Shown: positions 5,622 to 52,005, numbered from the stretch's first letter. The stretch is DNA of 64,000 nucleotides from an uncultured Gammaproteobacteria bacterium (GCA_964543035.1 CAZIVL010000001.1:122000-185999); one strand, 5' to 3'. Program-made: numbers and translations. Notes: generated from the letters alone by a model not told the origin.

Positions 5622-5635
5622 GCATTAAACATTTT

Positions 5636-6637: not shown

Positions 6638-6660
6638 TCGTCTCATGCTAGAATAAAAAT

Positions 6661-10321: not shown

Positions 10322-10395
10322 TGGCTGCGGGGCAGGGACTCGAACCCCGATTAATAGATCCAGATTCTATTGGCCTGCCATTAGCCGACCCCGCA
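10322..10395 (-). tRNA. tRNA-Gln (anticodon CUG)
   Basis: Manual fold of the reverse complement: U1-A72 acceptor pair with G73 discriminator (a Gln identity feature), anticodon stem ATAGA/TCTAT, loop AUCUGGA, T-loop TTCGAGT, and an encoded 3' CCA. Confidence 0.7.
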
Positions 10396-22767: not shown

Positions 22768-25700
22768 CTAATTCATCGCCTGAACTTTGAAGTCTTCCCA
22801 AACAAAGTGCAGGTTATCTATGGTTGTTTTAGTCTCGGGCAAGATTCTTGAAACGATAACATCGTTGCCAAATAGGTCGTTAATGACATCCCCTTCTTTG
22901 GTGAATATTTTTTCGGCAATCATTTCTTTGGCTTCAGCTGCGCCAATATAAACTGGTACATATTTTTTGCCACCGATATAGACTGGGTTAAAGCCATCAA
23001 CTGGGATCATTTCTTTGACTTCGGTAGGATAGCGTTTATCCATTAGGTAAAATTGTTTGACTACGCCTTCGGGTGTAGTGATTTTAACTATCTCACCTGC
23101 TTTTGGTGCAGCTTGTACTTGTTGGGTTTTATCCATAGGGTTTTCACTGGCCATAGTCGAGCTAAATCGAGCAAATTCAATAAATATGAAGGTAAATACA
23201 ACCATCATAACAGCGGGCGCAAACATGGAAACATAGTTCTTCTTGCCCGGAACAAATTGGCGCAATAGAAGTGAATTTCCAACAACGGAAATTGAACTCA
23301 GAGCCATAGCCAGCCCTGCGAGTTCCGGTTTGAGAACGAGTCCAGCAAATGCAAAGACACGGGCAGCCACGGGAATACCGATCACGTTATAAAACAGGGC
23401 AAAGAACATGTTTTGCTTTACTTTTTGCATGGTGGATTTGGAAAGGTCGATAGCGTGTACCACATCACGTAAGTCGTTCTTAATAATGACGATGCCTCCC
23501 GCTTCCATGGCCACATCAGTCCCTGAACCCATGGCAATGCCTAAATCAGCTTGAGCTAAAGCTGGCGCGTCATTAATACCATCTCCGACCATGGCTACCT
23601 TTTTTCCGGCATCCTGAAGCTTTTTCACTTCATTGGCTTTATCTTGTGGTAGGACTTCCGACAAGACATTGGTAATTCCAACTTGAGATGCAATGGCTTT
23701 AGCAGTTCGAGCGTTATCTCCCGTGATCATCCACACTTCAATACCAAGTTTTTGTAGCTTTTCTACTGCCTCTCGTGACGTTTCTTTGACTGTGTCGGCA
23801 ACTCCAATGATGCCCAAGATTCCGTCTTTAGTAGCCAGAGTCATCACCGTTTTACCTTGTTCTTCGAGTCGATTAATCTTTCGATCATACTTACCTACTT
23901 CTAGGCCAAGGGTGTCGGTCATGAGCTTTCTGTTACCAAAGTAGTAAACGGTGTCACCAATTTGACCTTTAACGCCGTGACCCGGAATGGCACTAAAGTT
24001 TTCGACACTACTTAAGGACACATTTTCTTCCTGAGCATAACTATAAATGGCTTCAGCCAATGGATGCTCGGATTGCTTCTCTAAGCTAGCTGAGATTTGC
24101 AGCACTTCATCTTCAGTAAAGCTGCCAAAGTCTTCAATATCTGTTACCTCGGGTTTGCCTTTTGTAATGGTTCCGGTTTTATCAAAAATAATGGCATTTA
24201 CTTTACAAGCCGATTCTAATGGTTCTCCACCTTTGACCAGTATTCCATGTTCAGCACCCTTGCCAGTTCCCACCATAATGGCCGTGGGTGTAGCCAAACC
24301 TAGAGCACAAGGACAGGCAATGACAATAACTGCTGTAAATGCCATTAAAGCAAAAGACAAAGTGGACCCAAGCAGGAAGTACCAGACACCAAAGGTAAGT
24401 AGAGCCACGATAATAACCGCTGGAACAAACCAAGATGAAATGCGGTCAGCAAAGGCTTGAATTGGCGCTTTTGAGCCTTGAGCGTCTTCGACTAATCGAA
24501 TAATTTGTGACAAAGTGGTTTCTGAGCCTATACGAGTGGCTTTGAATTCAAAACTTCCGGTTTTATTAATAGTACCTCCAATGACATTGTCGCCGGAATT
24601 CTTCTCAACGGGTAGACTTTCACCAGTAATCATTGACTCATCTATGGCTGACATACCTTTGAGAATGACACCATCAACCGGAACTTTTTCTCCCGGACGA
24701 ACGACAACAATGTCATCTTTCACGACCTGATCAACTGGAATATCAAGGGTACTGCCATTACGAACCACGCGCGCGGTCTTGGCCTGAAGCCCCATGAGTT
24801 TTTTAATTGCTTCAGACGTTCGACCTTTAGCTTTGGCTTCTAAAAACTTCCCTAATAGCACAAAGGTAATCAAGAATGCAGCAGTTTCAAAATACAGCTC
24901 AGGAATTTTGGCACCACCAAGTCCGATTAAAGAATCGTTTATGGCAAAGTATTTAATGAAATTGACGACACTGTAAAAGTAGGCTACAGAGGTGCCAATG
25001 GCGATTAAACTATCCATGTTAAAGGTACGCATACGAAGAGCCGACATCATGCCTTTATAGAATCCCGATCCGATGAAAAATTGCACCGGTGTTGCTAAAA
25101 CAAAAGAGATAACTCCCACCCATGGAAGTAGCAGCTTTGCGCCGGGAATAAAGTTGAAGAAATCAAACAACATAAAGTAAATCATGGGTAGTGACAAGAT
25201 AAAGCTAACTAGAAACCGTTTGTATTGGGACCTAATTTCGTTTTGTTGGCGAAGGGATTGTTCCTTTGTATCGGCTGTATCGGCAACCTCTGCTTTGTAT
25301 CCGGCTTTTACAACGGCTTGCAATAAATCCTGGTTTGATGCCTGAGACGGATCAAATACGACTGCAGCTTTTTCTGCCGCAAAATTAACCCGGGCTTCGG
25401 TAACTCCTGAAACCTTTTTTAATTGACGTTCAATTATTTGAGCGCAAGAAGAGCAGTGCATACCGAATATTGCTAAATTAGCCCGACCTGTTTTTTCGCT
25501 TTTAACAGCGGCGGATACAACTTCAGAAGCTGTACTTATGGGTTGTTGTTCTGTATCAGTCGTTGTATTTCCAAAGCGCAATTTGCCTTTAATGCTAAAT
25601 TGCCCATCGGCATCACGGCCAATTTTTCCATCAATTTCAACTTCCTGTGGAAATGATATTTGCGAAACATAAAGGGGGGTATTAGGAGCGAGTACTCCGT

Positions 25701-25956
25701 TAACTTGCCCATTTGCATGTCCGTTTGAGTGGACAGTGTCGCCCATAACTCTACCTTTATAGCCTGCAGTTTGAATTGCAGACAGAATTTTATCGCTAGT
25801 TACCTGTTGATTTCCGGCAACTAGAGTCCCAAGGCCTGATTTAAATTCCAAGTTCACATCCTTTACACCCGGAATTGAACTTAATTCGTCTTTGATTAAC
25901 AGCTCGCAGGAAGCACAGTGCATACCATCTACTTGAAATTGAATTTTTTGGTTCAT
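22768..25956 (-). CDS. copA: Cu(I)-translocating P1B-type ATPase with two N-terminal HMA domains and a roughly 200-aa C-terminal extension
   Basis: Two MHCxSC HMA motifs, TGES, CPC ([12 protein letters not shown]), DKTGTIT and [10 protein letters not shown]. An extra TM helix plus soluble tail follows the last canonical helix. Confidence 0.85.
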
Positions 25957-27948: not shown

Positions 27949-28131
27949 CTAATGCTTGTGGTTACCACCTTTCATCATAAGAATATGGAGAAGCGGACAG
28001 GCAAGGATGAATCCATAGGTGAGGACCGATCCTACTGGCAGCTTAAAAACAAATAATGCCAAGCCTCCAGCAACTAGTCCCAAGAGGCAGATAATCAAAA
28101 CAGGGTGAGCCTTGAGTATATTCATACTCAT
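27949..28131 (-). CDS. Small two-TM protein with C-terminal LACPLLHILM...HKH motif (DUF2933-like)
   Basis: Paralog of 37469-37675; both lie immediately downstream of a histidine kinase. Confidence 0.5.
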   Translation of the reverse strand: MSMNILKAHPVLIICLLGLVAGGLALFVFKLPVGSVLTYGFILACPLLHILMMKGGNHKH

Positions 28132-28149
28132 TACTGTAACGTCTGAGGA

Positions 28150-28166
28150 ATTAAGATTTTATGAAG
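28150..28166 (-). promoter_or_regulatory. Conserved island motif (minus-strand sense CTTCATAAAATCTTAAT), copy A
   Basis: The identical 16-nt core occurs at 32850 and 36179, each 23-33 nt upstream of a minus-strand start codon. Confidence 0.4.
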
Positions 28167-28170
28167 ATGT

Positions 28171-29559
28171 TTAACGGGGAAAGTTCACCATAATGGTAGT
28201 AACCTTTTTAGGAGTACTTTCAATAGTAATTGTGCCCCTATGGGCTTCAATAATAGATTTACAAATAGCCAGTCCTAATCCTGATCCAAAAGTTGTCACT
28301 TTTTTGCCACCCCGGTAGAAGCGGTCAAAGACATGGGGTAAGTCGGCTTTTGAAATACCTGGTCCAGTGTTGGTAATTTCAATTAAGTCTGACGATTTGG
28401 TTCTTGATAAGGTCACAGAGATTCTGCCCTTTTCAGGTGTATATTTGACAGCATTCTCTAAAAGATTAAAAAATGCCCGAAATAGCTTTTGGCGTTTTCC
28501 GGCAATCTCAATATGCTGTTTGATTTCCTCAATTACATAGATCTGTTTCGCCTCTGCCATTTTCTTGGTGATATCGACAAGTTCTCCTAGCATTTCCGAC
28601 AGGTCAACCCTTTCAGTGTTTAAAAGTGGCTTGTCTGATTCCGACCAGGCCAAATCCAAAACATCATTAACAGTTCCGGATAAATGATCTACATCAACCA
28701 ACGTTTCGTTTAGTGTGTGCTGGTACTCTTTGGCGGTTCTGTCTTTTGAAAGTGTTACTTCAATTGAGTTTTTTAACGTTGATAAGGGTGTGCGTAGTTC
28801 ATGAGCTACATCGCCAATAAATTGCCGTTCTCGAGTAAACGAATCTGAAAGTCTAGTGAGCAGTGAGTTAAACGACGTAGATAATTCTTCTAGTTCATCG
28901 CCTGTTTTGAATATATGAATCGGTTGAGATAAATTTGACAGCGAAATCTCTTTGAGCTTTAAAGACAGTTGGGTTACGGGTTGCAACGCTTTTTTTGAAA
29001 TAATAAGGCCTCCGATAAGAGACAGTACGCTGGCTATACCAAAGATTAAGACAAGTTCTGAGGACAGCTTATTTAGCGAGTCAGTAATGACATCTGTCGG
29101 GTGACCGACTAAAACGAGGTTGTCTGTATTTTCATTTGTTGAAACCGGAAAGATTCCCACACGCATGTGAGTAGTTCCGATCGTTAGTTCAATAAATGAA
29201 GAATTGATTAGATTAGCCGATTTTTCAAAAACGTCTTTAAGTGTTTTTGTACTCGACTCAACTATTTGAGAAGAGCTTAGAATTTCCCCGTTTCTGTTGG
29301 CAATGACAATAAGCATTCCCGGCATTTCCGAAAACTCCCTACTTAGTTGTTCTTGGGGGAAAGAAGTATGCATGCCTACACTTTGTTGTGCAATTAGATC
29401 GACTATTTGCTCACCATGTTGAGTAATTTCTTGATCGGTTTGGGCTAGTAACGTTTGCTTAGTCACGACATAAAATATGCTAAATACTACTGCCGCGCTA
29501 ACAAAGAAGGTTACAAAATACCACAGTGATAATCTGAATCGAACGCTTTTCAGGTTCAT
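28171..29559 (-). CDS. Sensor histidine kinase (CusS/CopS-like)
   Basis: Two TM helices, HAMP, HisKA (AHELRTP) and HATPase (GSGLGLAI). Confidence 0.8.
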   Translation of the reverse strand: MNLKSVRFRLSLWYFVTFFVSAAVVFSIFYVVTKQTLLAQTDQEITQHGEQIVDLIAQQSVGMHTSFPQEQLSREFSEMPGMLIVIANRNGEILSSSQIVESSTKTLKDVFEKSANLINSSFIELTIGTTHMRVGIFPVSTNENTDNLVLVGHPTDVITDSLNKLSSELVLIFGIASVLSLIGGLIISKKALQPVTQLSLKLKEISLSNLSQPIHIFKTGDELEELSTSFNSLLTRLSDSFTRERQFIGDVAHELRTPLSTLKNSIEVTLSKDRTAKEYQHTLNETLVDVDHLSGTVNDVLDLAWSESDKPLLNTERVDLSEMLGELVDITKKMAEAKQIYVIEEIKQHIEIAGKRQKLFRAFFNLLENAVKYTPEKGRISVTLSRTKSSDLIEITNTGPGISKADLPHVFDRFYRGGKKVTTFGSGLGLAICKSIIEAHRGTITIESTPKKVTTIMVNFPR

Positions 29560-30233
29560 GATTTTTGCTCCGAAACTTTAAACCCTACACCATGGACTGT
29601 TTGAATTAATTTCACTTTGTCACCTCCGTCAATTTTTTTGCGCAAAGTGGTGACAAACACATCAACGACATTGCTCATACTGTCAAAGTTATAGTCCCAA
29701 ACATGTTCGGTAATCATGGTTCGGGTCACGACTTCATTTGGGTGACTCATTAATAGTTCCAGAATGGCAAATTCTTTGGGAGTGAGAGAAAGGTCTTTTC
29801 CACTTCTGACTACGGTGTGTTTAATGGGGTCAAGTTCCAAGTCAGCAACTTTTAGTGTAGGAGATGCGCTGTTGTGCGTTCTCCTAATCAAGGCCTGCAA
29901 ACGTGACTTTAATTCGATAAAAGAAAAAGGTTTGGACAAATAATCATCTGCGCCACTATCAAGTCCTTGAGATATGTTTTCAACAGTCCCCTTTGCAGTC
30001 AGCATCAATATGGGAGATTTATTCTTTTTGTTGCGCAAAGTTTTACATACCTGAATGCCGTCGACTTTTGGCAGCATGATATCTAAAATTATGCAGTCGT
30101 AGGTTTCCGATTCGGCCAAATACAGCCCTTCTTCACCATCAAAAGCTTGATCGACAGCAAATCCAGACTCCATCAGACCTTTTTTAAGAGAATCGGAAAG
30201 GCGCTTCTCGTCCTCAATAACTAGTATTCTCAT
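29556..30233 (-). CDS. OmpR-family response regulator (CusR/CopR-like)
   Basis: Receiver domain (DCIILDIMLP, LMLTAKG) plus a winged-helix domain. Confidence 0.85.
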   Translation of the reverse strand: MRILVIEDEKRLSDSLKKGLMESGFAVDQAFDGEEGLYLAESETYDCIILDIMLPKVDGIQVCKTLRNKKNKSPILMLTAKGTVENISQGLDSGADDYLSKPFSFIELKSRLQALIRRTHNSASPTLKVADLELDPIKHTVVRSGKDLSLTPKEFAILELLMSHPNEVVTRTMITEHVWDYNFDSMSNVVDVFVTTLRKKIDGGDKVKLIQTVHGVGFKVSEQKS

Positions 30234-30284: not shown

Positions 30285-31247
30285 TTATACTCCACATCCA
30301 CCATTTCGTTTTGGCGGCTCAGCCACTATTCCTTGGTCTATTAACCAACGCTTTGCTTGTTGAGAACCAGATGCCGATGAGAAGTCTTTAGACAACAGGG
30401 TTCTGGCATCAATCTGATCAAAGCTTTTACCTTCTTTGTTTTTGAAGTAAACGGCCAGATCATAGTAATTGCCGGGGAACCAGTAAGCATTAATATATTT
30501 GGAAGTATTGTACATATCCTCTTCTGAAGCACCATTTGCAGCCATTATCTCCAATATTCCCAACAGAGCCATTCCGTGATTACAATCAGGAAAAGCTGTC
30601 GAATTGTTACAGCAAGGCCTAAAAATGCTGGCAGCAACCTTTTCGACTAATTCTTCTTGAGCGGCAGTCAAAGGTATCAAGTTTCCTTTGGAGTAGTATT
30701 TCATAGCATCGCTTTTTCCAAGCGTCCAGCCACCGGTTGAAGCAAAGTTTTTTACTCCCTCAATGCCACCGTACTGAGTCATTTCCCCTTCAGTTAATAG
30801 CTTAGTTTTATTGGAAAGCCCCACTGCCCAAAAAAAGTTCAAAAGAAAATACGAATTTTCCTGATTGATAACAATGGTTTCATCCGAACCGTCAGTGAGG
30901 ATTCGCTCAAGATCTTCATAGAACGGCTTTCCAGACTTAAGGTACGCATCTTTAAACTTTTGTAAATCAATCACACCTTGATCAACCATTTTAGGACCCA
31001 ACTGGCCGTAAGAAACATTAAGGGAAATGCCCCTAGAAGGATTAATCTCCTCAAATATCGCTTGTGATTCTTGAGAAGAAGCTTGTGAACCTGTTACAAC
31101 TGTGGCTTGTGTCAATTTATCTTTCCTAAACACCGCCTTTATATCGGTAGCCTTTTTAGTTAGGGCCGGGAGGATCTGAAATAAATTAAGACCCACACTT
31201 ACAAACAAAAGCAACACAATTTTGTTTTTTAGAATTTTATTCTTCAT
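30285..31247 (-). CDS. Hypothetical secreted protein with Cys cluster PCCNNS-x7-DCNHG
   Basis: Signal anchor; a single conserved-looking Cys/His cluster that could bind metal. Confidence 0.4.
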   Translation of the reverse strand: MKNKILKNKIVLLLFVSVGLNLFQILPALTKKATDIKAVFRKDKLTQATVVTGSQASSQESQAIFEEINPSRGISLNVSYGQLGPKMVDQGVIDLQKFKDAYLKSGKPFYEDLERILTDGSDETIVINQENSYFLLNFFWAVGLSNKTKLLTEGEMTQYGGIEGVKNFASTGGWTLGKSDAMKYYSKGNLIPLTAAQEELVEKVAASIFRPCCNNSTAFPDCNHGMALLGILEIMAANGASEEDMYNTSKYINAYWFPGNYYDLAVYFKNKEGKSFDQIDARTLLSKDFSSASGSQQAKRWLIDQGIVAEPPKRNGGCGV

Positions 31248-32061
31248 GAGATTTTCCTTTGTATTTAAGTAACTTGTAGAAAATAAAAATAACTATGGCG
31301 AAAACTACTAAATCCACAATTGGGTTTTTAAAGTACTTGGCAATTTCAAAGACAACCAAACGAATTGTTTGACTGTATCCTTCCATCTGATCCATTTGAA
31401 TTTTTCCTTGATAGTTAAAATAGGCAATCAAAATTCCAGTCAAGAAGAAGATTCCTGCTGCCAACCACTTGAAAACGTCGTAAATCTTTTTGCGGTTTTT
31501 GCCGAACTTGTGTGATGCCTTGTCGTAAAAAAGAGACAGGACAAAGAGCGGCATCACGATACCTAAAACATAGGCGAATGAAACAATGGCTGCTTGTAAT
31601 AGTGTGGGTGATAGTGACGTTAAAGTCACAGCGGCAAACAATACAGGAGCACAACATGCTGAAGTCAGTCCGGACATTAGCCCTAACCCAAAGACACTTG
31701 CGGTATTAACCCTGGGATTTGCTTCCCCACCCACATGGAAGATTTGGGGAAGGTGAAATATAGGCTTGATGGTCGAAATACCCATGAGTACCATTACTAA
31801 GGCGCCCAGGTAATAAATCTGAGTATGGTACGCATCAAGTAAATAAATGGCTGAGCGAATGCCTAAAGAAATGGGTACTAAAATAAAAGCCAAACCTAAG
31901 GCAAAAATCAGAGTGTAGTACATAACTCGTTTATGGTTTTTAAAGATTGATCCCAGGTAAGATGGAAATAGAAACGTGATGCAACAGGGTGCAAATAGTG
32001 CCATAACCCCTGCTAAAAATGAGGCTGTGAGAGAGATGCCGAATAAAAAGCCTGTGTCCAT
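31237..32061 (-). CDS. CcdA/DsbD-like polytopic membrane protein with two intramembrane Cys-Cys pairs
   Basis: APCC in TM1 and SACCAP in a later helix (MerT/CcdA-like); six or more TM helices. Confidence 0.5.
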   Translation of the reverse strand: MDTGFLFGISLTASFLAGVMALFAPCCITFLFPSYLGSIFKNHKRVMYYTLIFALGLAFILVPISLGIRSAIYLLDAYHTQIYYLGALVMVLMGISTIKPIFHLPQIFHVGGEANPRVNTASVFGLGLMSGLTSACCAPVLFAAVTLTSLSPTLLQAAIVSFAYVLGIVMPLFVLSLFYDKASHKFGKNRKKIYDVFKWLAAGIFFLTGILIAYFNYQGKIQMDQMEGYSQTIRLVVFEIAKYFKNPIVDLVVFAIVIFIFYKLLKYKGKSHEE

Positions 32062-32558
32062 TAGTTTACCCTCGCTTGAATTGAAAACGATAATTTAGAA
32101 TTTTGCGGATCATTGGTAGTTACATAGACTTCACGGGTGACAAGTCCGTTAACTGGCATTGTGGCTGGTCGGTAAGTCAGGCGTACGGTGGCTGAATCGC
32201 CCGGGGCAATTTCGGTCACAAAACCGCTTTGCTTGTGCATGCCGAATTCTTTACTGGTTTCGCCTTTATAAATTATTTGTCCGGCGGTGCAACCACAGCT
32301 GGTATTGACGTTTAATATTTGTAGAGGCTTAGTGCCACCATTGGTGAGAGTAAAGTCTTGCACCTTAACATCTGAAAGCTTAAGGTCACCGACATCAAAA
32401 AATCGCTCAGAGACTTGGGCTATCGGACGGTCAGAGTCTGTTGCTGAGTAAGCTGCATTTGTAGGAGTGGGTTTTTGATTACCGCTAAACAGAAAAGCCG
32501 CTCCTACCACCATGATTATCAGAATAAATATATAAATAAGAACAGTTTTGGTTGACAT
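32061..32558 (-). CDS. DUF1573-like secreted protein (SCGCT motif)
   Basis: N-terminal anchor and a TSCGCTAG motif as in DUF1573. Confidence 0.5.
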   Translation of the reverse strand: MSTKTVLIYIFILIIMVVGAAFLFSGNQKPTPTNAAYSATDSDRPIAQVSERFFDVGDLKLSDVKVQDFTLTNGGTKPLQILNVNTSCGCTAGQIIYKGETSKEFGMHKQSGFVTEIAPGDSATVRLTYRPATMPVNGLVTREVYVTTNDPQNSKLSFSIQARVN

Positions 32559-32559
32559 A

Positions 32560-32826
32560 TTAATTCAAATACCTAAAGCTTTTGACTATTTCTTGAACGT
32601 AATAGGCACTATTGTCTCCTTTTAAGCCTAAGCTGCACTCAACAACATAATTGCGAATTAACAAATCGGATCCGTCTTTAATTTCTTGGCGAACTAGTCT
32701 AGTTAATCGAAGAGCCTCGTTACAGTTATTATCTTTCTCAATAAGTGACATGACTATGTTTAAGCCACTTTGTGCGTGTTCTAGTTTCTCTATAACCTTT
32801 TTGGTACTCGCATTTTTCAATCTCAT
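32560..32826 (-). CDS. CsoR/RcnR/CstR-family (DUF156) metal- or persulfide-sensing repressor
   Basis: Helical roughly 88-aa protein with Cys at the positions of the CsoR family's Cys ligands and Tyr/Asn in place of the usual His ligand (CstR-like). Confidence 0.55.
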   Translation of the reverse strand: MRLKNASTKKVIEKLEHAQSGLNIVMSLIEKDNNCNEALRLTRLVRQEIKDGSDLLIRNYVVECSLGLKGDNSAYYVQEIVKSFRYLN

Positions 32827-32849
32827 GAGCTAATGCTACAAAGGCAGGT

Positions 32850-32866
32850 ATTAAGATTTTATGAAG
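32850..32866 (-). promoter_or_regulatory. Conserved island motif, copy B (upstream of the CsoR-like gene)
   Basis: The 16-nt core ATTAAGATTTTATGAA shared with copies A and C; 23 nt upstream of the start at 32826. Confidence 0.4.
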
Positions 32867-33701: not shown

Positions 33702-35957
33702 TTAAACCGTTACAAGATCCTGCTCTGCCCGGTTTAATAACACTGCATTCGTAGCTACTATGATTGATGAAATACTCATCAGAAGAGCTGCGAATTCAGG
33801 TCGAAGCTCAATTCCATATTTGGGGTATAGCACTCCAGCAGCAACTGGAATAGCTAATAAGTTATAAATTGACGCCCAAAAAAGATTTTGCTTCATTTTT
33901 ACAACTGTTGCTTTTGATAATCTGATGGCACGTAAAATGTCGGCCGGGTCTGAACGCATTAGTACGACTTTGGCCGTTTCTATAGCCACATCAGTTCCAG
34001 CTCCAATTGCTATGCCTATATCAGCTTGGGCTAACGCCGGGGCATCATTTACACCATCGCCAACCATGGCTACAAACTTGCCCTCCTGTTGAAGCTTTTT
34101 AACATATGAAGCTTTATCTTCTGGTAAAACTTCAGAAAATATTCTATCGATATCTAACTGCTTCCCGATCGCCTCAGCAGTCTTTTTGTTATCACCAGTA
34201 ATCATAGCTACTTCGAGTCCTAGTTCCTTCATACGAGAGATTGCTACCTTGGCATTTTCTTTTATTGGGTCGGTGGCCGCAGCAACTCCTGCAACTTTTT
34301 TGTCCACAGCGAGTATCATGATTGTCTTTCCCTCAGAAAGAAGTTTATCAATATCCTGTTGTAGCGGAGAAATATCAACGCCTGAATCATTCATTAGTTT
34401 TAATGTGCCAACGAGGATATGTTTACCGTCTACAAGTGCCTCCACGCCGTGGCCAGCTAAATTGTTAAATTTTTCAACTTTAGTGGAGATTGTTAACTCT
34501 CTAGTCTTTGCCTCTTCTAAAATGGCCAGGCTCAATGGGTGAGATGACTTTACTTCAGCTGCAGCATCAAGCTCAATTATTTGGTTCTCGTTAAATCCTT
34601 TAGCGGCTATAATGTCGGTTATCTTTGGTTTGCCTTCCGTAAGAGTCCCGGTTTTATCAAGGACAATAGCCTGTATTTTTGAAACCTGTTCAAGTGTCGG
34701 CGCATCCTTAATCAAAATATTATGCTTGGCCCCAAGACCAGTCCCCACGGCAACCGCAGTAGGCGTAGCCAACCCAAGAGCATCAGGACAGGCGATAACC
34801 ACGGTAGAAATGGCAAAGGTCAGTGCCACCATAAGCGGCTGACCCAATACAAAAAACCATATTACAAACGTCAATAGACCCCCACCCACCGCAACAATAA
34901 CTAAATACTTGGCAAATCTATCGGCAATCTTTTGTCCAGGAGCTTTAGAATTTTGGGCCGTTTCTACCATTTTGACAATTTGTGCGAGCGCCGTATCCTC
35001 ACCAACCTTTGTAGCCTTAAACTTTACCGATCCGGAGGTATTGATTGACCCACCAATTACCCTATCTCCAACGCTTTTAGAAACAGGCAGTGATTCTCCG
35101 GTCACCAACGATTCATCAATGGCTGTTTCACCCTCAATAATCTCTCCGTCAACAGGAACCTTGTCTCCAGGCTTTAAAATGAGAATATAGTCAAGTTTTA
35201 CGTCTGAGGTCGAAATTAAAGTCTCTTTATGATCTTTCCAAAGCCTGGCTTGAGGTGGGACAAGATCAAAAAGGGCTTGAAGTGCATCTGTCGTTCCACG
35301 TCTAGATTTCATTTCCATCCAGTGTCCAAAAAGTACAAAAGTGGTAAGCATGGCTGCTGCTTCATAAAACGACTCCTCACTCCCAAGGAGTGTTAAAACA
35401 ACACTAAATACGTAGGCTGCAGTAATGCCAACGGCGATTAACACCGCCATATTGAGCGTTTTCGCTTGCAGAGCTTTGTATGTGGAGAAGAGAAATATCC
35501 ATCCCGAGTAAAAATACACAGGGGTAGTTAAAAGAAACATGATCCAATTAGCCGGAATGGGAGTAGGGAGGCTTAGTCCTAGGATGTTAGTCCCCAGCGG
35601 GGAATAGGCAATAATTGGCAGTGTCAGTATAAGTGCCACAAAAAACTTATTACGGATGTCTTCCTCCATCAGTTTTGCCATTTCTCGCCCCGCCAAGCCT
35701 CCATGCTCCATGCCCATTGCCATGGTCATACTCATTTTGAATTTTTCCCAAAATGACATTTGAGCTACAGGCTTCATCACATGGTCTTTATGATCCATGG
35801 CAGCATGATCCGTCGGATTTCCTGTAGCACCTTTTACTGGGACTAATGTCATTCCACACTTAGGGCAGGTTCCAGGAGCGTCTTTTACCACGTCCGGATG
35901 CATTGGACAGGTGTATCTTGAAGCCAATTTCAAATGGGTGTGTTGTGCATGATTCAT
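33702..35957 (-). CDS. P1B-type heavy-metal ATPase with atypical CPD TM motif, His-rich N-terminus and a CPMHP...CPKCGM metal-binding domain
   Basis: TGES, IACPDALGLATP (the gat codon was checked in the DNA), DKTGTLT, GDGVNDAPAL, YN in TM7 and MSISS in TM8. N-terminal HTH...DHAAMDHKDH and YTCPMHPDV...GTCPKCGM. Confidence 0.85.
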   Translation of the reverse strand: MNHAQHTHLKLASRYTCPMHPDVVKDAPGTCPKCGMTLVPVKGATGNPTDHAAMDHKDHVMKPVAQMSFWEKFKMSMTMAMGMEHGGLAGREMAKLMEEDIRNKFFVALILTLPIIAYSPLGTNILGLSLPTPIPANWIMFLLTTPVYFYSGWIFLFSTYKALQAKTLNMAVLIAVGITAAYVFSVVLTLLGSEESFYEAAAMLTTFVLFGHWMEMKSRRGTTDALQALFDLVPPQARLWKDHKETLISTSDVKLDYILILKPGDKVPVDGEIIEGETAIDESLVTGESLPVSKSVGDRVIGGSINTSGSVKFKATKVGEDTALAQIVKMVETAQNSKAPGQKIADRFAKYLVIVAVGGGLLTFVIWFFVLGQPLMVALTFAISTVVIACPDALGLATPTAVAVGTGLGAKHNILIKDAPTLEQVSKIQAIVLDKTGTLTEGKPKITDIIAAKGFNENQIIELDAAAEVKSSHPLSLAILEEAKTRELTISTKVEKFNNLAGHGVEALVDGKHILVGTLKLMNDSGVDISPLQQDIDKLLSEGKTIMILAVDKKVAGVAAATDPIKENAKVAISRMKELGLEVAMITGDNKKTAEAIGKQLDIDRIFSEVLPEDKASYVKKLQQEGKFVAMVGDGVNDAPALAQADIGIAIGAGTDVAIETAKVVLMRSDPADILRAIRLSKATVVKMKQNLFWASIYNLLAIPVAAGVLYPKYGIELRPEFAALLMSISSIIVATNAVLLNRAEQDLVTV

Positions 35958-35969
35958 ATAAATTTAGTT

Positions 35970-36145
35970 TACTCCTCTTTTCTTTCATCTCTGGGAATCC
36001 AGTGTTCAGGATGAGCGTCAAATATTTCTTTGTCTTGGGTAGTGCAAAAATAATAATTTTTCCCCAAATAGGTTGAAACCGCTTTCATTTCATTCTTGGG
36101 TTTTTTCATCCCACAGACGATATCTTGGACAATTTCATCTTGCAT
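35970..36145 (-). CDS. YHS-domain small metal-binding protein (58 aa; below the ORF-track cutoff)
   Basis: Translated by hand: MQDEIVQDIVCGMKKPKNEMKAVSTYLGKNYYFCTTQDKEIFDAHPEHWIPRDERKEE. The CGM...YYFC YHS signature is present; a GGAGGG RBS precedes it; it lies 12 nt upstream of the ATPase start. Confidence 0.6.
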
Positions 36146-36178: not shown

Positions 36179-36194
36179 ATTAAGATTTTATGAA
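36179..36194 (-). promoter_or_regulatory. Conserved island motif, copy C (upstream of the YHS-ATPase operon)
   Basis: The same 16-nt core, 33 nt upstream of the YHS start codon. Confidence 0.4.
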
Positions 36195-36260
36195 AAACGT
36201 AACCAATGCTGAACCTACTACAATCAATAGTAGCAATATCATGTTGGAAAGGAAAGATTG

Positions 36261-36929
36261 TCACTGACTTCGAAGAGCTTTTCCGTGTTTTAGCGGCTCT
36301 GGAGTACTCACTAAGCGACTTAACGAAGGAACAAATCCAGGGACTACTTTCTTATACATACCGTATTCGTTTCCGAATCTCTCTTGTAACTCTTTCTCTT
36401 CAGCTCTGGCGAGTCCTACATATCGAAAAACGAGGATTGGAGCCATGGCTAAAGTAATCAAAGTTGGCCACTGAAGGAGAAAACCAAAAATAATCAGCAC
36501 AAAGGCTAGGTACTGAGGGTGTCTTATATATCTGTAGACACCTTTAACCGCGAGTTTCTGTTTCTTTTGCGACTCGTAGAGGACTTCCCATGCCTTACCT
36601 AGAAGCATAAGCCCGCCGATAATTAAAGTATAGCTTATAATATGAAGGAGGCTGAAATGTGGGTCACTTTTTATACCTAAAAGCGTATTGAGCAAGTGAC
36701 CATTGTTATGAGTAAAATCTAGCCCTAAACGATTACCAAAGAAAGAAGTCAGCAGGTAAATAGTTAACGGAAATCCATACATCTCTGCAAAGAGTGCGAC
36801 AATAAACGCTCCAAAGATTTTATAAGTTTTCCAATCAGTTTTCGTTCTTGGTTTAAATGCGCTTTTTATGAAATAGAGGAAAAGCACAATATTAAACAGT
36901 ACTAGAAACCAGTTACCGTAATCATTCAT
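36261..36929 (-). CDS. Isoprenylcysteine carboxyl methyltransferase / phospholipid methyltransferase family membrane protein
   Basis: GVYRYIRHPQY...EE..L...FG.EY motif pattern. Confidence 0.65.
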   Translation of the reverse strand: MNDYGNWFLVLFNIVLFLYFIKSAFKPRTKTDWKTYKIFGAFIVALFAEMYGFPLTIYLLTSFFGNRLGLDFTHNNGHLLNTLLGIKSDPHFSLLHIISYTLIIGGLMLLGKAWEVLYESQKKQKLAVKGVYRYIRHPQYLAFVLIIFGFLLQWPTLITLAMAPILVFRYVGLARAEEKELQERFGNEYGMYKKVVPGFVPSLSRLVSTPEPLKHGKALRSQ

Positions 36930-36994
36930 ATACGTGTAGTGTAACAGGGGATAGGTTAAGAAATTATGAGTTTCATCCTAGGTAAATATTAAAA

Positions 36995-37020
36995 ATCACC
37001 CTCGTGGTTTTGAGGGTGAT
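36995..37020 (-). terminator. Rho-independent terminator hairpin (9-bp stem ATCACCCTC/GAGGGTGAT, 8-nt loop) with flanking T-runs
   Basis: Read directly; lies downstream of the minus-strand gene 37106-37381 and is followed on the minus strand by TTTTTAATA. Confidence 0.45.
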
Positions 37021-37105
37021 TTTCATTGAAGTGCTACTCGTGAGTATTATGTTGTAGGACTTCTGCAGCGACTTTGACAGCAGGTCATATGGTTTCCTCC
37101 TTTCA

Positions 37106-37381
37106 TTAAGTTTCCTTACTCACCGTGTCATTTAAATGGCTACATTCCTGTATATCATTTCCATGATGTTGTTTCATCATCGTATTTATTTGTTGTTTCG
37201 TATCCAATGAAAGACTGTTCATATGATCAGCAGGACTTTTCGAGTCGTGCATCTGCGTCATATGTACCGAAGCTTCTTGTGCACTCACGGACTGCGTTTT
37301 AAGACTTACAGTTAATATTGCCACTGCAAAGAGGACTATTGCCATAATGCTGCCACTTTTTATTATTTGTTTGAGATTCAT
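37106..37381 (-). CDS. Small secreted Met/His-rich protein (candidate periplasmic Cu-binding)
   Basis: Signal peptide; HMTQMHD, ADHM and MMKQHHG clusters. Confidence 0.4.
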   Translation of the reverse strand: MNLKQIIKSGSIMAIVLFAVAILTVSLKTQSVSAQEASVHMTQMHDSKSPADHMNSLSLDTKQQINTMMKQHHGNDIQECSHLNDTVSKET

Positions 37382-37675: not shown

Positions 37676-37736
37676 AAGATTTTTCTTTATAAAACTACTT
37701 TACTAATCATGGGCTTTAGAAATGATGAAGGAGACG

Positions 37737-38744
37737 TTAAGATATATTAATCTTTGGCAAAGATACCGCTACGAAAGTGCCTTTACCCACTTTACTCGTA
37801 ATATCAATAGTACCCTGATGGGCTTTTACGACTGCTTGAACTATAGCCAGTCCTAAACCAGAACCAAAAATTTTATCAGTTCTGGAGCCTCGGTAGAAAC
37901 GCTCAAATACGTATGGAAGATCTTCCTTGTGTATTCCCAAGCCATTATCCTTAACCTGAAATACTGCTAGGTTATTTTTAGTACGAAGGTCAATAGTAAT
38001 ACTGGCGTTATTTGGAGAAAACTTCACTGCATTATCGACAATATTCAAAAACGCTCGAAACAATTTATCTTTACGACCGGAAATTATCACATCCTTATCG
38101 ATTGAACCATTAATAATCAGATTTTTATCGAATGCTAATTTAGTGGCAACTTCTTTTACTTCTGTCACCACCTCAGATATATTAATCGTGGTCGCTCCTT
38201 TTTGGGCATCCTCAGTGTTGGACCAAGCTAAATCCAGAATGTTTTTTATAGTAGTTGAGATCCTGTTGGAGTCAGACAGGGCTTCCTCAATTGCAATTTT
38301 ATAGTCTTCTTTTGATCGATCCTTTGAGAGTGTTAACTCAAGCGATGCCCGCTGAACGGATAACGGAGTTTTAAGTTCATGAGCCACATCTCCAATGAAT
38401 TGACCTTCTCGCCTAAATGCTTCATCAAGGCGACTCAGTAGTTGATTAAATGCATGTGCCATCTCACCAATTTCGTCGTCTCGATTTATCTCGGTAATCT
38501 TCTCATTAAGGTTTTTGCTGGTTATTGTTTGTATTTTTGACGACAAATAGGTTAACCCGTCAGTCAATTTTCGAATAATAAAAAGACCCTGCAATGCCAG
38601 AACAAATACCAACAAAAAGTAGACAATATCCCCATTGGGTAGTCGTAATATATGAATACCTATATAAAAAAATGCAGTAATCGTTAATAATGAAGTTGCA
38701 TACCAAAGAATAAGTCTATTTCGAAAAGTGTTAAATCGTTTCAT
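37737..38744 (-). CDS. Sensor histidine kinase (second CusS-like paralog, short sensor loop)
   Basis: HisKA AHELKTP; HATPase GSGLGLAIV. Confidence 0.8.
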   Translation of the reverse strand: MKRFNTFRNRLILWYATSLLTITAFFYIGIHILRLPNGDIVYFLLVFVLALQGLFIIRKLTDGLTYLSSKIQTITSKNLNEKITEINRDDEIGEMAHAFNQLLSRLDEAFRREGQFIGDVAHELKTPLSVQRASLELTLSKDRSKEDYKIAIEEALSDSNRISTTIKNILDLAWSNTEDAQKGATTINISEVVTEVKEVATKLAFDKNLIINGSIDKDVIISGRKDKLFRAFLNIVDNAVKFSPNNASITIDLRTKNNLAVFQVKDNGLGIHKEDLPYVFERFYRGSRTDKIFGSGLGLAIVQAVVKAHQGTIDITSKVGKGTFVAVSLPKINIS

Positions 38745-38750: not shown

Positions 38751-39431
38751 TTAGGCAGACTCGCTAATCTTGTAACCTACTCCATGAACAGTATGGATGA
38801 GAGAACTACTTTTTTTCTTATCAATCTTTCGCCTAAGAGCTGAAACAAATACATCTACCACATTGCTCATACTGTCGAAGTTGTAGTCCCAGACCTGTTC
38901 GGTAATCATGGTTCTGGTAATCACCTCGTCTTTATGCCGAAGAAGTAACTCCAAAACTGAAAATTCCTTTTGGGTTAAATTGATTGGTTTTCCACCCTTA
39001 GAGACCTTATGTTTCAAAGGGTCTACTTCAAGATCGGCAACCTTTAGTACGATTGAAGTGTCTGACTTGCTGCGCCTGATTAATGCGTGCACTCGAGAAT
39101 GTAACTCAATATAAGCAAACGGTTTTGCAAGGTAGTCATCAGCTCCGCTATCCAGACCAGCCACTCTATCTTCTACCGTAGTTTTTGCTGTAAGCATTAG
39201 AACTGGAGTTTTTATGCGTTTTGCTCGAAGCTCTTTACAAATAGTTAATCCATCAATTTTGGGAAGCATGATATCAAGGATAATAAGATCGTAGTTCTCC
39301 GACTCTGCAAGGTATTGTCCCTCCTCCCCGTCATAAGCAGCATCTACTGCAAACCCATCCTCAGCAAACCCCTTTTTAATTACATTGGAAATTCGTCGAT
39401 CATCCTCAATGGCCAGTATTCTCATGACCAC
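38751..39431 (-). CDS. OmpR-family response regulator (second paralog)
   Basis: Collinear with 29556-30233 (same LDIMLPK.DG and LMLTAK motifs). Confidence 0.85.
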   Translation of the reverse strand: MVMRILAIEDDRRISNVIKKGFAEDGFAVDAAYDGEEGQYLAESENYDLIILDIMLPKIDGLTICKELRAKRIKTPVLMLTAKTTVEDRVAGLDSGADDYLAKPFAYIELHSRVHALIRRSKSDTSIVLKVADLEVDPLKHKVSKGGKPINLTQKEFSVLELLLRHKDEVITRTMITEQVWDYNFDSMSNVVDVFVSALRRKIDKKKSSSLIHTVHGVGYKISESA

Positions 39432-39566
39432 ATGGTATACCTTGAGAGATGAAGATATTATTAAGAAATCGTTTGGGGTTGATTAAGAGGATACCATCGA
39501 AACACAAAACCAATTAAGATAATTCCAAGAATTCAGACGAGAAAAACTCTTAATTTTCTTTATAAA

Positions 39567-48401: not shown

Positions 48402-50306
48402 TTAGTTTTTCTGGTAACCAAAATTAAATAATCTCAGACTGTTGACGACTACTAGGACGGTAACTCCTACATCGGCAAAAATGGCTAAAGCAAGACTGCT
48501 CTTTCCCGCTAGGGCCAAAAATAGAAAGATGGCTTTAACCGCGATAGCCGCACCGGTATTTATCCTAATCGTACTGCCTGAAACTTTGCCTAATCTGACT
48601 AGAAAGGGTATTAGCCCCAAGTTGTTATTCATAAGAGCTATATCGGCATTCTCAACCGCCACCTCTGAACCGATCGCCCCCATGGCAATGCCGACAGAAG
48701 CCGTTGAAAGTGAAGGCGCATCATTGACCCCGTCACCCACCATCGCTACATCTTTGTATTTGGTGACCAGATTTTTAAGCTGGATTACTTTCTCATCCGG
48801 TAGGAGTCTGGCGTGGACTTCATCAATACCGACTTCCTTAGCAACATATGAGGCTGCTGAAGCATTATCTCCGGTAAGAATTGCTGTTTTGACTTTTAAT
48901 TGGTGCAACTCCTTAATGGTAGAGGAGCTCTCGGGCCGGATTTCATCAACAATCCCGAGAACTCCTTTAATTTTTTTGTCGTCAGTGATAATAATAGCGG
49001 TTTTGCCTTCTTTTTCGAACCGCTCAACAATATCAACTGTTCGTTTATCTACCTTATGTTCTTCCATCACAAACTGAAGGGTCCCGATACAATGATGCTT
49101 ATCCACACACACCAGACATTCGCCTGAAATACCTTTTCCCATAATCGCTTTAAAGTTGGCATACTCGTGGTCTTTGATATCAGGGAAATTTTTCGAGCTT
49201 TCAACAATGCTCCTAGCAATCGGGTGTTCGGAAAAAGCCTCGGCTCCAGCTACACAAGCCAGAAGTTCAGCCTTCGTGTAACCGTTTAGAGGAATGACAT
49301 CGGAAACTACGGGTTCACCCTTGGTGAGGGTTCTGGTCTTGTCGAAGGCAATTGCCTTGACTCTGCCCATCTCTTCTAAAAACTGACCGCCTTTGATAAG
49401 AATTCCACGCTTTGTGGCATTGCCGATGGCTGAAAAGATAGTTATAGGAGTGGATATAACCAGGGCACACGGACAAGCAATCAAGAGGATTGTTAAGCTC
49501 TGGGCAAACCAAGGAGTAAACGGTTGGCCAAAAAAAAGAACAGGTATAGCTGTCAGGAAGAGCGCAAGCACTAATACTCCAGGGGTATAGTAAGAAGCAA
49601 ATTTTTCAATGAATCTAGCAGCCTGTGACTTACGCTCAGCCGCCTGAAAAGTCAAATCAACAATTTTGGCCAGTGTCGTATCTTTGGATACTTTAGTAAC
49701 TTTGATTTCCAAGTAGCCTTGGCTATTGAGTGTTCCAGCAAATACCGGCTCTCCTTCATATTTATTTTTCGGCAATGGCTCCCCGGTAATCGAGCTTTCG
49801 TCTACCAATGATTCACCTTTAATGACAACTCCGTCCAAAGGGATGTAGTCACCCGGTTTGATCACAACAATATCGTTAATGGCAATTTTCTCAATAGGAG
49901 TTTTGTTTTCTTGTCCTTTCAAAAGTGCGGCTTTAGGAGCTTTTTCCACTAGCTCTTCTAAAGCACTCTGGCTTCTGGTAATGCCGAACTCCTCCAGAGC
50001 CTCACTGACCGCAAACAGGACAATAATAATGACTGCTTCTTCGAGTTCTCCCAGATAGACTGCACCAAAGGTGGCCACAGTCATGAGTAAATTGATATTT
50101 GAGAATTTGAGTCTTGCAAGACTTTGTAGCCCACCAATAATTACTTCCCGGCCGAAGAAAAAGATGATGGCGGCAAATAAGGGATATTCGATAAATGCGG
50201 GTAAGTGAATGGAAAAAAGGGACAGAATCTCAAGAGGTATGATCAGAAGCAAAGTGGCAGCTAGCCGCTTGAACTTGGTTTCTTTAAGAATTTCTGAAAT
50301 AAGCAT
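48402..50306 (-). CDS. P1B-2-type (Zn/Cd/Pb) P-type ATPase lacking an N-terminal metal-binding domain; DKTRT in place of DKTGT
   Basis: CPC, TGEP, GDGVNDAPSL, TM7 N-x7-K and TM8 ADVG features; DKTRT checked in the DNA (gacaagaccagaacc). Confidence 0.8.
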   Translation of the reverse strand: MLISEILKETKFKRLAATLLLIIPLEILSLFSIHLPAFIEYPLFAAIIFFFGREVIIGGLQSLARLKFSNINLLMTVATFGAVYLGELEEAVIIIVLFAVSEALEEFGITRSQSALEELVEKAPKAALLKGQENKTPIEKIAINDIVVIKPGDYIPLDGVVIKGESLVDESSITGEPLPKNKYEGEPVFAGTLNSQGYLEIKVTKVSKDTTLAKIVDLTFQAAERKSQAARFIEKFASYYTPGVLVLALFLTAIPVLFFGQPFTPWFAQSLTILLIACPCALVISTPITIFSAIGNATKRGILIKGGQFLEEMGRVKAIAFDKTRTLTKGEPVVSDVIPLNGYTKAELLACVAGAEAFSEHPIARSIVESSKNFPDIKDHEYANFKAIMGKGISGECLVCVDKHHCIGTLQFVMEEHKVDKRTVDIVERFEKEGKTAIIITDDKKIKGVLGIVDEIRPESSSTIKELHQLKVKTAILTGDNASAASYVAKEVGIDEVHARLLPDEKVIQLKNLVTKYKDVAMVGDGVNDAPSLSTASVGIAMGAIGSEVAVENADIALMNNNLGLIPFLVRLGKVSGSTIRINTGAAIAVKAIFLFLALAGKSSLALAIFADVGVTVLVVVNSLRLFNFGYQKN

Positions 50307-50347
50307 AGTTTAATTGTACCGCGTAATGGTTTCATAGATCGATACAT

Positions 50348-50812
50348 TTACTCTTGTCTGAGATCCCCAATAAAGAGCTTTTCCAGCTGTGTTATAGCTT
50401 GTGCAGGATGCGGCCCTTTATTATTTGTCGGTCTATCATTAAATAAGGTTGTGGCATCTTTTCCGCAACCAGCAAGAACAGCCTTCCCTCCCGGGTGATT
50501 GGGAATAAACTCAGTAACGTCGTAGACTTTTCCTTCAATTGCCAGCCAGCAATCTGTCTCTAAATTATGTGTGGCAATTTCTTCAAGCGTATATGTTTTT
50601 GTGGCTGGTGTGGGGCTGCTAGAAATTTGAGATTCAACTCGATTCTTAGTGGTATCTGTATTTTGTGAAGGAGATGATAGTACAGGTTTTCTATTTGAAA
50701 ATAATAAAAATCCTCCACCCACCAGCAGAATGCCAATTATTACGACACCCATAACTACGGAATTTTTTGATTGCTTAGATTGATTATTTTGTTCGGTCTT
50801 ATCTGGATCCAT
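50348..50812 (-). CDS. Membrane-anchored cytochrome b5-like heme-binding domain protein
   Basis: HPGG motif within a YTLEEIATHN...VYDVTEF...HPGGK b5 core; N-terminal TM helix. Confidence 0.6.
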   Translation of the reverse strand: MDPDKTEQNNQSKQSKNSVVMGVVIIGILLVGGGFLLFSNRKPVLSSPSQNTDTTKNRVESQISSSPTPATKTYTLEEIATHNLETDCWLAIEGKVYDVTEFIPNHPGGKAVLAGCGKDATTLFNDRPTNNKGPHPAQAITQLEKLFIGDLRQE

Positions 50813-50827
50813 TTATTTCGCCTCCAT

Positions 50828-51952: not shown

Positions 51953-52005
51953 AAAATGTTATTTTACTATGTTTTGTAGTAATTAGGAAGCCATTGTATG
52001 AGCTT

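Follow-up and report, generated by a model that had tools for sequence, protein, structure and literature searches.

Two CopRS-Like Systems in a Copper Island Are Each Followed by a DUF2933-Like Hairpin Protein, a Candidate CopR-Controlled Output

Two Paralogous Two-Component Systems in One Copper Island

We analysed a stretch of 64,000 nucleotides (nt) from an uncultured Gammaproteobacteria bacterium (GCA_964543035.1, CAZIVL010000001.1:122000-185999), hereafter the window, in which two response regulator-histidine kinase (RR-HK) pairs are each followed by the gene of a tiny membrane protein, mini1 and mini2 (Table 1). Positions are counted within the window, and every gene discussed lies on the minus strand. 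An earlier note, made from the sequence alone, had described these sets as paralogous and had proposed that the small protein is an accessory sensor or metal-binding partner of the kinase. All six open reading frames (ORFs) are present, and the paralogy is borne out by identities of 67% between RR1 and RR2 (E=9e-116), 40% between HK1 and HK2 across the HAMP-HisKA-HATPase part (E=5e-79), and 45% between mini1 and mini2 (E=5e-13). With modest confidence, we favour the interpretation that the mini protein is a copper-induced output of a CopR-type regulator, encoded by the first cistron of the induced unit and acting as a membrane Cu(I)-binding hairpin, and is not a dedicated part of the sensor.

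Both sets lie within a single copper/redox island at ~22.8-39.4 kb, and mini1 and mini2 are the only mini copies in the window. RR1 and HK1 overlap by 4 nt and HK1 is separated from mini1 by 39 nt; the corresponding gaps in the second set are 6 nt (RR2-HK2) and 61 nt (HK2-mini2). Between the two sets, genes for SRPBCC, DUF5676, p88, DUF1573, CcdA-like, and p320 proteins lead directly into RR1-HK1. The gene order 3' of mini2 is p91, a terminator-like hairpin, ICMT, YHS, and an HMBD-type P1B-ATPase. If Met3 is the translation start, mini1 has 58 amino acids (aa) instead of 60; mini2 has 62 aa if counted from its second Met.

Table 1. Genes, putative operator boxes, and terminator of the copper island.
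Feature	Position	Strand	Evidence or remark
P1B-type ATPase with N-terminal HMA	22768-25956	-	phmmer annotation; GMHCASC motif in N-terminal sequence; last gene of the mini1 unit
HMA (CopZ-like) metallochaperone, 77 aa	25953-26186	-	Pfam HMA
HMA-DsbD_2-cupredoxin fusion protein, 580 aa	26186-27928	-	Pfam domains; 20 nt 3' of mini1
mini1, DUF2933-family two-helix membrane protein, 60 aa	27949-28131	-	family profile; AlphaFold hairpin
Box 1, putative CopR-type operator, CTTCATAAAATCTTAAT	28150-28166	-	exact 17-mer within the HK1-mini1 gap
HK1, CopS/CusS-like sensor kinase, 462 aa	28171-29559	-	Pfam HAMP, HisKA, HATPase_c
RR1, OmpR/CopR-type response regulator, 225 aa	29556-30233	-	Pfam Response_reg and Trans_reg_C
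p88, DUF1573, CcdA-like, and 320-aa Cys-rich protein (p320), four genes 5' of RR1	30285-32826	-	
Box 2, exact copy of the box 1 17-mer	32850-32866	-	5' of the p88-DUF1573-CcdA-p320-RR1-HK1 string
HMBD-type P1B copper ATPase	33702-35957	-	Pfam HMBD, E1-E2_ATPase
YHS-domain protein	35969-36145	-	Pfam YHS
Box 3, TTTCATAAAATCTTAAT	36179-36195	-	one mismatch to the 17-mer; 5' of YHS and ATPase
ICMT-family methyltransferase	36261-36929	-	Pfam ICMT/PEMT
Degenerate box-like sequence	36955-36971	-	5' of ICMT
Intrinsic-terminator-like hairpin ending the mini2-p91 unit	36991-37023	-	RNAfold: 12-bp stem, -17.2 kcal/mol, T-run
p91, small signal-anchored protein with MMKQHHG...C motif	37106-37381	-	assigned to the mini2 transcription unit
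mini2, DUF2933-family two-helix membrane protein, 68 aa	37469-37675	-	mini profile, E=3.9e-28
Box variant, CTTAACGTCTCCTTCAT	37725-37741	-	overlaps the HK2 stop codon; 5' of mini2
HK2, CopS-like kinase, 335 aa	37737-38744	-	
RR2, OmpR/CopR-type response regulator, 226 aa	38751-39431	-	
Box variant, CTTAATAATATCTTCAT	39449-39465	-	5' of RR2

The best NCBIfam family of both regulators is TIGR01387 (cztR_silR_copR), with 258.9 bits for RR1 and 266.2 bits for RR2 against a cutoff of 279.2, and that of both kinases is TIGR01386 (CusS/CopS/CzcS), with 274.3 bits for HK1 and 210.3 bits for HK2 against a cutoff of 292.55. Because these scores lie under the curated cutoffs, we name the pairs CopRS-like and do not count them as members. 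The proteins share the architecture of Escherichia coli CusRS and Legionella LciRS, an OmpR-family regulator and a HAMP-HisKA-HATPase kinase, but fall under the NCBIfam cutoffs of these families as well. The predicted recognition helices of RR1 (NVVDVFVTTLRKKI) and RR2 (NVVDVFVSALRRKI) differ at three positions.

As had been remarked, the two kinases differ strongly in their sensing domains. Transmembrane (TM) segments at residues 15-33 and 169-187 of HK1 enclose an extracytoplasmic loop of ~135 aa, a full CusS-like domain of CusS size that is rich in His and Met. The segments of HK2 (12-30 and ~39-57) leave a loop of just ~6-8 aa, RLPNGD, from which His, Cys, and Met are all absent. HK2 is thus short like LciS (357 aa), but the sensing loop of LciS has 28 aa and contains copper-sensing His and Cys residues mapped as essential by mutation (PMC6989116), and HK2 reaches only 144.8 bits against the LciS-type kinase family NF045903, whose equivalog threshold is 700.

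The Small Proteins Probably Belong to a Subfamily of DUF2933

A single-sequence search with mini1 returned only mini1 itself, so a profile was needed. The five-sequence mini profile retrieved 697 proteins from a library of 5.8 billion at a permissive E<=10, and the 120 matches listed all have E<=1.4e-15. A hidden Markov model of the family found 499 clusters at 50% identity in a second library of 1.84 billion (E<=1e-3; lengths of 44-227 aa). These matches across libraries indicate that the minis are real genes and not chance ORFs. Nearly all profile relatives come from metagenomes of Patescibacteria (candidate phyla radiation, CPR), and the relatives of the minis and their loci include Woesebacteria, Collierbacteria, Gottesmanbacteria, and Daviesbacteria.

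Taken singly, the minis score at or below the gathering threshold of the Pfam family DUF2933 (PF11666): mini1 reaches 19.2 bits (E=0.0014) against a gathering score of 21 bits, and mini2 alone has no match at E<=0.01. All five aligned mini members match PF11666 at E<=1, the best with E=1.6e-5, many profile matches carry a precomputed PF11666 assignment, and two of them (P0003 and P0085) are named "DUF2933 domain-containing protein" by NCBI. An hhalign comparison with one canonical DUF2933 member gave a probability of only 59%, and a sequence search of the PDB found no relative. Both minis have the two-helix membrane hairpin of ~50-90 aa found in DUF2933 and the genomic setting of this family, a metal-resistance cluster with cupredoxin, ICMT, or P1B-ATPase genes. 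By these comparisons, the minis appear to be divergent DUF2933 family members of a CPR-centred subfamily marked by a C-P-L-x-H motif and a strictly terminal HKH, and the term "DUF2933-like" used by the earlier note is right at the family level.

The LACPLLHI block is identical in mini1 and mini2 and both end in HKH, as the note had seen; nearly all CPR members terminate exactly there. In mini1 numbering, L43, C45, P46, L47, H49, M52, and H58 are invariant, and C15 in the first TM helix (TM1), M53, K59, and H60 are conserved in at least 90% of members. AlphaFold with the family alignment predicts a helical hairpin (helices 8-28 and 33-54; mean predicted local distance difference test score of 76), in agreement with hydropathy and with the two TM segments proposed before. 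The register of this model would set C15 level with C45/P46. The invariant Cys, His, and Met residues make a metal-binding role plausible, and this part of the previous proposal can be kept.

Proteobacterial DUF2933 proteins belong to the same two-helix family, with the core L-x-H-(I/L/V)-(F/W)-M-(M/H), and have the same neighbours (cupredoxin, ICMT, P1B-ATPase). They lack the subfamily signature, and their genes lie in MerR/CueR clusters, whereas the window's minis stand behind CopRS-like kinases and a CopR-type box. MerR-CopA-cupredoxin-DUF2933-ICMT clusters are found in Alteromonas, Pseudoalteromonas, Vibrio, and Salinimonas (PMC8478169), a DUF2933 ORF is part of the Salmonella CHASRI/SGI-4 island (PMC12582456), and in Bradyrhizobium diazoefficiens DUF2933 is promoter-proximal in a FixK2-controlled DUF2933-ICMT operon (PMC9104804). 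No CopS accompanies DUF2933 in these MerR or FixK2 settings. A tblastn search of plasmids with the family consensus found nothing, possibly owing to low-complexity masking, so the proteobacterial contexts rest on the literature.

One related locus, L097, contains two DUF2933 genes: a CPLxH mini (5448-5636) directly after the kinase and a canonical gene (6468-6662; Pfam 54.5 bits) that has A-H-L-F-M-H and no Cys-Pro, and that overlaps the start of ICMT. It may be that the roles of these subtypes differ. Eight further loci (L048, L063, L065, L072, L077, L081, L087, and L090) encode minis with an extended tail, ...MMKGHGGHDHKGKDDTKQxGKSCH. These genes adjoin thioredoxin (Trx)-like or CcdA genes and have a good Shine-Dalgarno sequence. 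As they have neither an adjacent box nor a two-component system (TCS), their regulation appears to be unlike that of the HKH-ending subfamily.

A Direct-Repeat Box Lies Between Kinase and Mini Genes

The gap between HK1 and mini1 contains a 17-nt box, a direct repeat of the form CTTCAT-N5-CTTAAT with 11-bp spacing, which is followed 11 nt downstream by the -10-like hexamer TACAGT (28133-28138). Direct repeats at 11-bp spacing are typical of OmpR-family sites. Three near-exact copies of the 17-mer occur in the window, all on the coding strand and just 5' of mini1, p88, and YHS, the last with a -10-like TATCAT 10 nt downstream. At up to three mismatches the window has four matches to the 17-mer (0.56 expected), and repeat variants of the form CTTMAT-N5-CTTMAT have seven (2.2 expected). 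The variant in front of mini2 recurs, as CTTAACGATTTCTTCAT, 5' of minis in L021, L023, and L053. From the box variant 5' of RR2, autoregulation of the second system would be expected.

The box resembles a known operator. CopR of Corynebacterium glutamicum binds TGAAGATTTnnTGAAGATTT, which was defined by electrophoretic mobility shift assay (PMC3140484). Positions 28151-28170 match this operator at 16 of 18 positions, the box being its reverse complement. The C. glutamicum model has the direct-repeat form TGAAGATTT-nn-TGAAGATTT, and in the window the core repeat lies 5' of mini1, mini2, RR2, p88, and YHS. CusR and LciR operators, in contrast, are inverted repeats.

Across ~90 related loci the box is enriched 5' of RR, mini, and ICMT genes. 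It occurs at 21 of 29 RR genes (scored from -150 to +45 of the gene start), 33 of 67 minis, 12 of 26 ICMT genes, and 5 of 16 cupredoxin fusion genes, compared with 0 of 31 HK and 2 of 54 ATPase genes. Between -110 and +40 from the mini start, a degenerate box was found for 21 of 30 TCS-adjacent minis and 11 of 41 others, at a background expectation of 0.017 per 150 nt. L002, whose mini is not TCS-adjacent, has the identical 17-mer, and L093-L098 carry the box at the site equivalent to box 2, 5' of the DUF1573 operon. In many of the related loci a TATAAT-like hexamer follows ~10-12 nt 3' of the box. The presence of a box and a -10-like element between the kinase stop codon and the mini suggests that the mini heads a regulator-dependent unit and hence is an output of the system.

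We considered and rejected the explanation that the box merely reflects coding sequence for the kinase C-terminus, since it also occurs in divergent RR-mini intergenic regions, 5' of RR genes, and 5' of minis without a kinase. A generic promoter and terminator scan of the window did no better than chance; it picked up neither the box nor the terminator behind p91.

The boxes come in two flavours, CTTCAT..CTTAAT (mini1, p88, YHS) and CTTAAY..CTTCAT (RR2, mini2). Together with the three differences in the recognition helices, this might point to operators that are partly specific for one regulator, or to cross-talk between the systems. Within 28120-28138, 32826-32838, and 39425-39440, the -10-like hexamers lie ~6-11 nt from the likely starts of mini1 (Met3), p88 (ATG), and RR2 (Met3), and no Shine-Dalgarno sequence was found at these three starts, which suggests leaderless or very short-leader mRNAs.

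Conservation of the RR-HK-Mini Order Is Asymmetric

Conservation was assessed in 80 metagenome loci and eight look-up loci, annotated by phmmer against reference proteins taken from the window and the loci; counts on the mini side were made on 57 informative clusters at 90% identity. The mini lies within 200 nt 3' of a CopS-like kinase on the same strand in 22 of these clusters and is divergent from a regulator in three, so that 25 of 57 (44%) are TCS-adjacent. Adjacency is seen with both kinase size classes, ~333 aa (8 loci) and ~465-487 aa (12 loci). The neighbour 3' of the mini varies between CcdA, ATPase, Trx, ICMT, p91, DUF305, the cupredoxin fusion, or a convergent gene; among ~46 clusters, CcdA was counted 7 times, ATPase 7, Trx 5, and ICMT 4.5. 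Minis also follow multicopper oxidase, DsbA, Trx, CcdA, and DUF5676 genes with no TCS nearby, and their neighbours in the sampled loci are always copper or redox genes.

On the kinase side, we inspected 4 kb to either side of the kinase gene for the seven best HK1 homologues whose contigs measure 10 kb or more. Only two, in the closely related loci L096 and L097, have a mini in this range, and five do not. The kinase gene is followed by the cupredoxin fusion in L092 and by a p91-like gene in L095, and in both a box overlaps the kinase stop codon; L098 has ICMT 3' of the kinase and no box, and L093 and L094 have neither. The HMA-DsbD_2-cupredoxin gene directly follows the kinase, with no mini between them, in L092, L011, and L046.

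A first impression that the triad is not conserved, gained from three related loci without an adjacent TCS, was overturned by the 80-locus scan. The association of mini and kinase is real but asymmetric and non-obligatory. Applied from the kinase side, the expectation that mini ORFs are conserved next to homologous kinases fails for five of the seven nearest HK1 homologues. Since L092 and L095 have the box before an effector gene other than a mini, what stays constant, judged from these sequences, is a putative regulator-dependent promoter that adjoins the kinase gene at its 3' end, with the mini as its frequent, optional first cistron. Such an output promoter would by itself create the apparent RR-HK-mini triad.

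A Putative Copper-Induced Membrane Hairpin

We read the locus as the copper-stress island of a Patescibacteria-like (CPR) genome, and two paralogous CopRS-like systems appear to control it. In the mechanism we propose, copper would activate HK1 through its extracytoplasmic domain of 135 aa and HK2 within or at the membrane. The phosphorylated regulators, with their near-identical recognition helices, would bind the direct-repeat boxes, which would take the place of the -35 element and drive the p88-DUF1573-CcdA-p320-RR1-HK1 string, RR2-HK2, YHS-ATPase, probably ICMT, and each mini. Two output units would thus begin with a mini, namely mini1-(HMA/DsbD_2/cupredoxin)-HMA-ATPase and mini2-p91, the latter closed by the terminator.

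Both termini of the hairpin would be cytoplasmic, and the half of the membrane that faces the cytoplasm would then contain a ladder of soft ligands formed by the terminal H-K-H, M52/M53, H49, and C45, with the TM1 Cys level with C45 in most members. The mini would most likely bind Cu(I) at the inner leaflet and either buffer the metal or pass it on, possibly to a YHS protein with a P1B-ATPase or to CcdA/DsbD-type proteins. The regulatory placement is the better-supported half of this interpretation; Cu(I) binding and the partner are what we infer.

Domain fusions are consistent with this topology. The only fusions among the best 150 representatives combine YHS with DUF2933 (P0344, P0350, and P0378); none joins a mini to a kinase, ATPase, or ICMT. 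In P1B-ATPase systems, YHS/TRASH domains serve as metal-binding modules on the cytoplasmic side. The fusion thus suggests that the N-terminus, and hence the C-terminal HKH tail, is cytoplasmic, and it links the hairpin to YHS/P1B-ATPase copper trafficking. The three fusion proteins are of high GC content and ~200 aa long; in each, an N-terminal YHS domain and the DUF2933 hairpin precede a long tail that is rich in His and ends in ...CH.

The closest regulatory parallel we found in the literature is the CopRS regulon of C. glutamicum, in which copR-copS, the small gene cg3283 with no assigned function, cg3282 (HMA), and copB are induced by copper as a block (PMC3140484). As in the window, an RR-HK pair precedes the genes of a small protein, an HMA protein, and a P-type ATPase, and the operator repeats TGAAG in direct orientation every 11 bp, like the box in reverse complement. 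C. glutamicum has a single operator 5' of copR that serves both divergent operons, whereas the window has several boxes, one of them between the kinase and the small gene.

In size, hairpin, motifs, and metal-resistance operon setting, the minis also recall MerF and MerE, a likeness drawn from description only. MerF and MerE are two-helix mercury transporters of ~60-80 aa with intramembrane Cys/Pro motifs, and their genes are often promoter-proximal. The Mer proteins carry Hg(II) into the cell to be reduced in the cytoplasm; for copper, import would serve no obvious purpose.

Several points weigh against the mini as a copper-induced output with a Cu(I) site. Binding of RR1 and RR2 to the box is deduced from its position and its likeness to the operator of a distant actinobacterium. 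No terminator lies in the HK1-mini1 gap, so transcripts reading through from the kinase operon would express mini1 as well. The TM1 Cys is absent from mini2, so a Cys-Cys site is not universal, and the literature that names DUF2933 gives no function and no experiment on any protein of the family. The kinase-side sample is small (n=7, +/-4 kb), and the loci come from metagenomes dominated by groundwater CPR bacteria. Finally, 44% TCS adjacency is far above random placement among ~20 island gene families, so the mini may well have some functional link to the kinase.

DUF2933 in a copper island and a CopRS-like regulon are already known kinds of finding; new here are the CPR-specific subfamily signature and the previously undescribed placement of the operator. 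The locus, together with ~95 related loci, thereby supplies a subfamily signature, a likely topology in which both termini are cytoplasmic, and a first-cistron placement behind a CopR-type operator for a family seen repeatedly in islands for copper and silver resistance, among them mobile islands of Salmonella and of marine bacteria. A hairpin that binds Cu(I) at the inner leaflet is a testable hypothesis and offers a concrete route to the function of this common domain. In addition, CPR bacteria appear to keep a multi-operon copper regulon despite their very small genomes, and the two kinases, although their sensing domains are very different, appear to act through a single type of operator. 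More generally, adjacency of a gene to a kinase can reflect promoter architecture instead of partnership.

Alternative Roles of the Small Protein

An unlikely alternative is that the mini is a feedback modulator in the style of MgrB and PhoQ, induced by the regulator and inserted beside the TM helices of the kinase to tune its activity. MgrB-PhoQ, SafA-PhoQ, and MzrA-EnvZ are pairs in which a small membrane protein regulates a sensor kinase, and the small protein is often encoded near a TCS. Small-protein feedback regulators such as MgrB are members of the regulon of their own system, and the mini, likewise a tiny membrane protein, is by box placement a direct member of the adjoining regulon. 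The modulator may report membrane or cytoplasmic Cu(I) through CPLxH and HKH, which may matter most for the class of kinases without a loop, such as HK2 with its ligand-free RLPNGD. Adjacency to both kinase classes with a variable gene on the 3' side fits such a role, as does the self-contained, terminator-closed mini2-p91 unit directly 3' of the second system. Against it, the co-occurrence with the cognate kinase is not consistent from either side, with minis missing near five of the seven closest HK1 homologues and many minis standing apart from any TCS. DUF2933 is widespread without kinases, is placed under MerR or FixK2 in proteobacteria, and is fused to YHS and never to a kinase. Its conserved metal ligands, which MgrB, SafA, and MzrA lack, are the same invariant residues whichever kinase class, or none, adjoins. 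The same observations, together with the mini's own promoter box and the high variability of the gene on its 3' side, leave the kinase-accessory half of the earlier proposal unsupported.

A more specific form, which we hold to be less probable still, has a CopR-induced mini bind Cu(I) in the inner leaflet through C-P-L-x-H/M-M/H-K-H and dock on the TM helices of CopS-type kinases, where it would serve as an intramembrane copper input for kinases without a loop, such as HK2, or as a negative-feedback brake. If true, this would be a metal-dependent counterpart of MgrB-PhoQ and would give a function to a widespread domain.

We also doubt, somewhat more strongly, that the mini is an accessory subunit or substrate of a neighbouring enzyme, either ICMT, which would methylate the ...HKH-COOH or ...SCH-COOH end, or the CcdA/thioredoxin electron-transfer pair, to which many minis are coupled in translation. 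Mini and ICMT are directly consecutive in L011, L029, L031, L059, L079, and L085, and the canonical DUF2933 gene of L097 overlaps ICMT by 8 nt. DUF2933-ICMT is a standard pair in Alteromonas and its relatives and is also present in B. diazoefficiens, and it is conserved from CPR bacteria to alpha- and gammaproteobacteria. The near-constant HKH end also speaks for such a role, and in L001, L012, L050, L063, and L090 the mini stop codon lies within 5 nt of, or overlaps, the start of CcdA or Trx. Yet the counts of 3' neighbours reveal no constant partner, and neither ICMT nor CcdA is directly 3' of mini1. To our knowledge, no substrate of a bacterial ICMT is known, which makes the idea of methylation speculation. 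The same holds for the more speculative variant in which the conserved free C-terminus of a kinase-docking mini is carboxyl-methylated by the co-conserved ICMT.

Finally, an obligate three-component system in which the mini is needed for metal detection is highly improbable: the RR-HK-mini order recurs and the mini has metal-ligand residues, but an inducible promoter between kinase and mini would place synthesis of the mini after the onset of signalling, the mini is missing beside close orthologues of the kinase, HK1 already has a full extracytoplasmic domain of its own, and the family is widespread without kinases.

Other Genes and Elements of the Window

The order DUF1573-CcdA-p320-RR-HK is kept in L004, L035, L040, L043, and L093-L098. 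The p88 gene (32560-32826, minus strand) is the first after box 2 and heads the string that leads to RR1-HK1. Over its full length it weakly matches the family of CsoR-type metal-sensitive repressors (PF02583, E=0.012, under the cutoff), so the CopR regulon may have a second copper regulator, a cytoplasmic one, nested within it. The p320 gene (30285-31247, minus strand) encodes a protein of the 310-320-aa type that is anchored at its N-terminus and rich in Cys in its C-terminal part (CCNNSTAFPDCNHG...GGCGV); neither Pfam nor NCBIfam gave a match. Its kin in L002 (12455-13387), L004, and L093-L098 always come after the CcdA-like gene and directly 5' of the regulator.

The p91 protein has no Pfam match. 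Its motif is kept as MMKxHHG...W...C...MM in the window, L039, L044, L047, and L095-L097, where the gene lies 3' of the mini (L039, L044, L047, L096, L097) or of the kinase (L095). It is probably an extracytoplasmic metal binder.

A second metal cluster at 48402-58044 (minus strand) encodes a BlaI/CopY-like repressor, a BlaR1-like protease, two DsbA-like proteins, a cupredoxin-domain protein, and two P1B-ATPases, which together with the island brings the window to four P1B-ATPases and three kinds of metal regulator. An Rfam scan of the window found two tRNAs and nothing else. Outside the island, next to the tRNA gene at 10325-10395, the segment 8001-10000 has a strongly anomalous local composition (GC 0.406, GC skew -0.35, AT skew -0.17).

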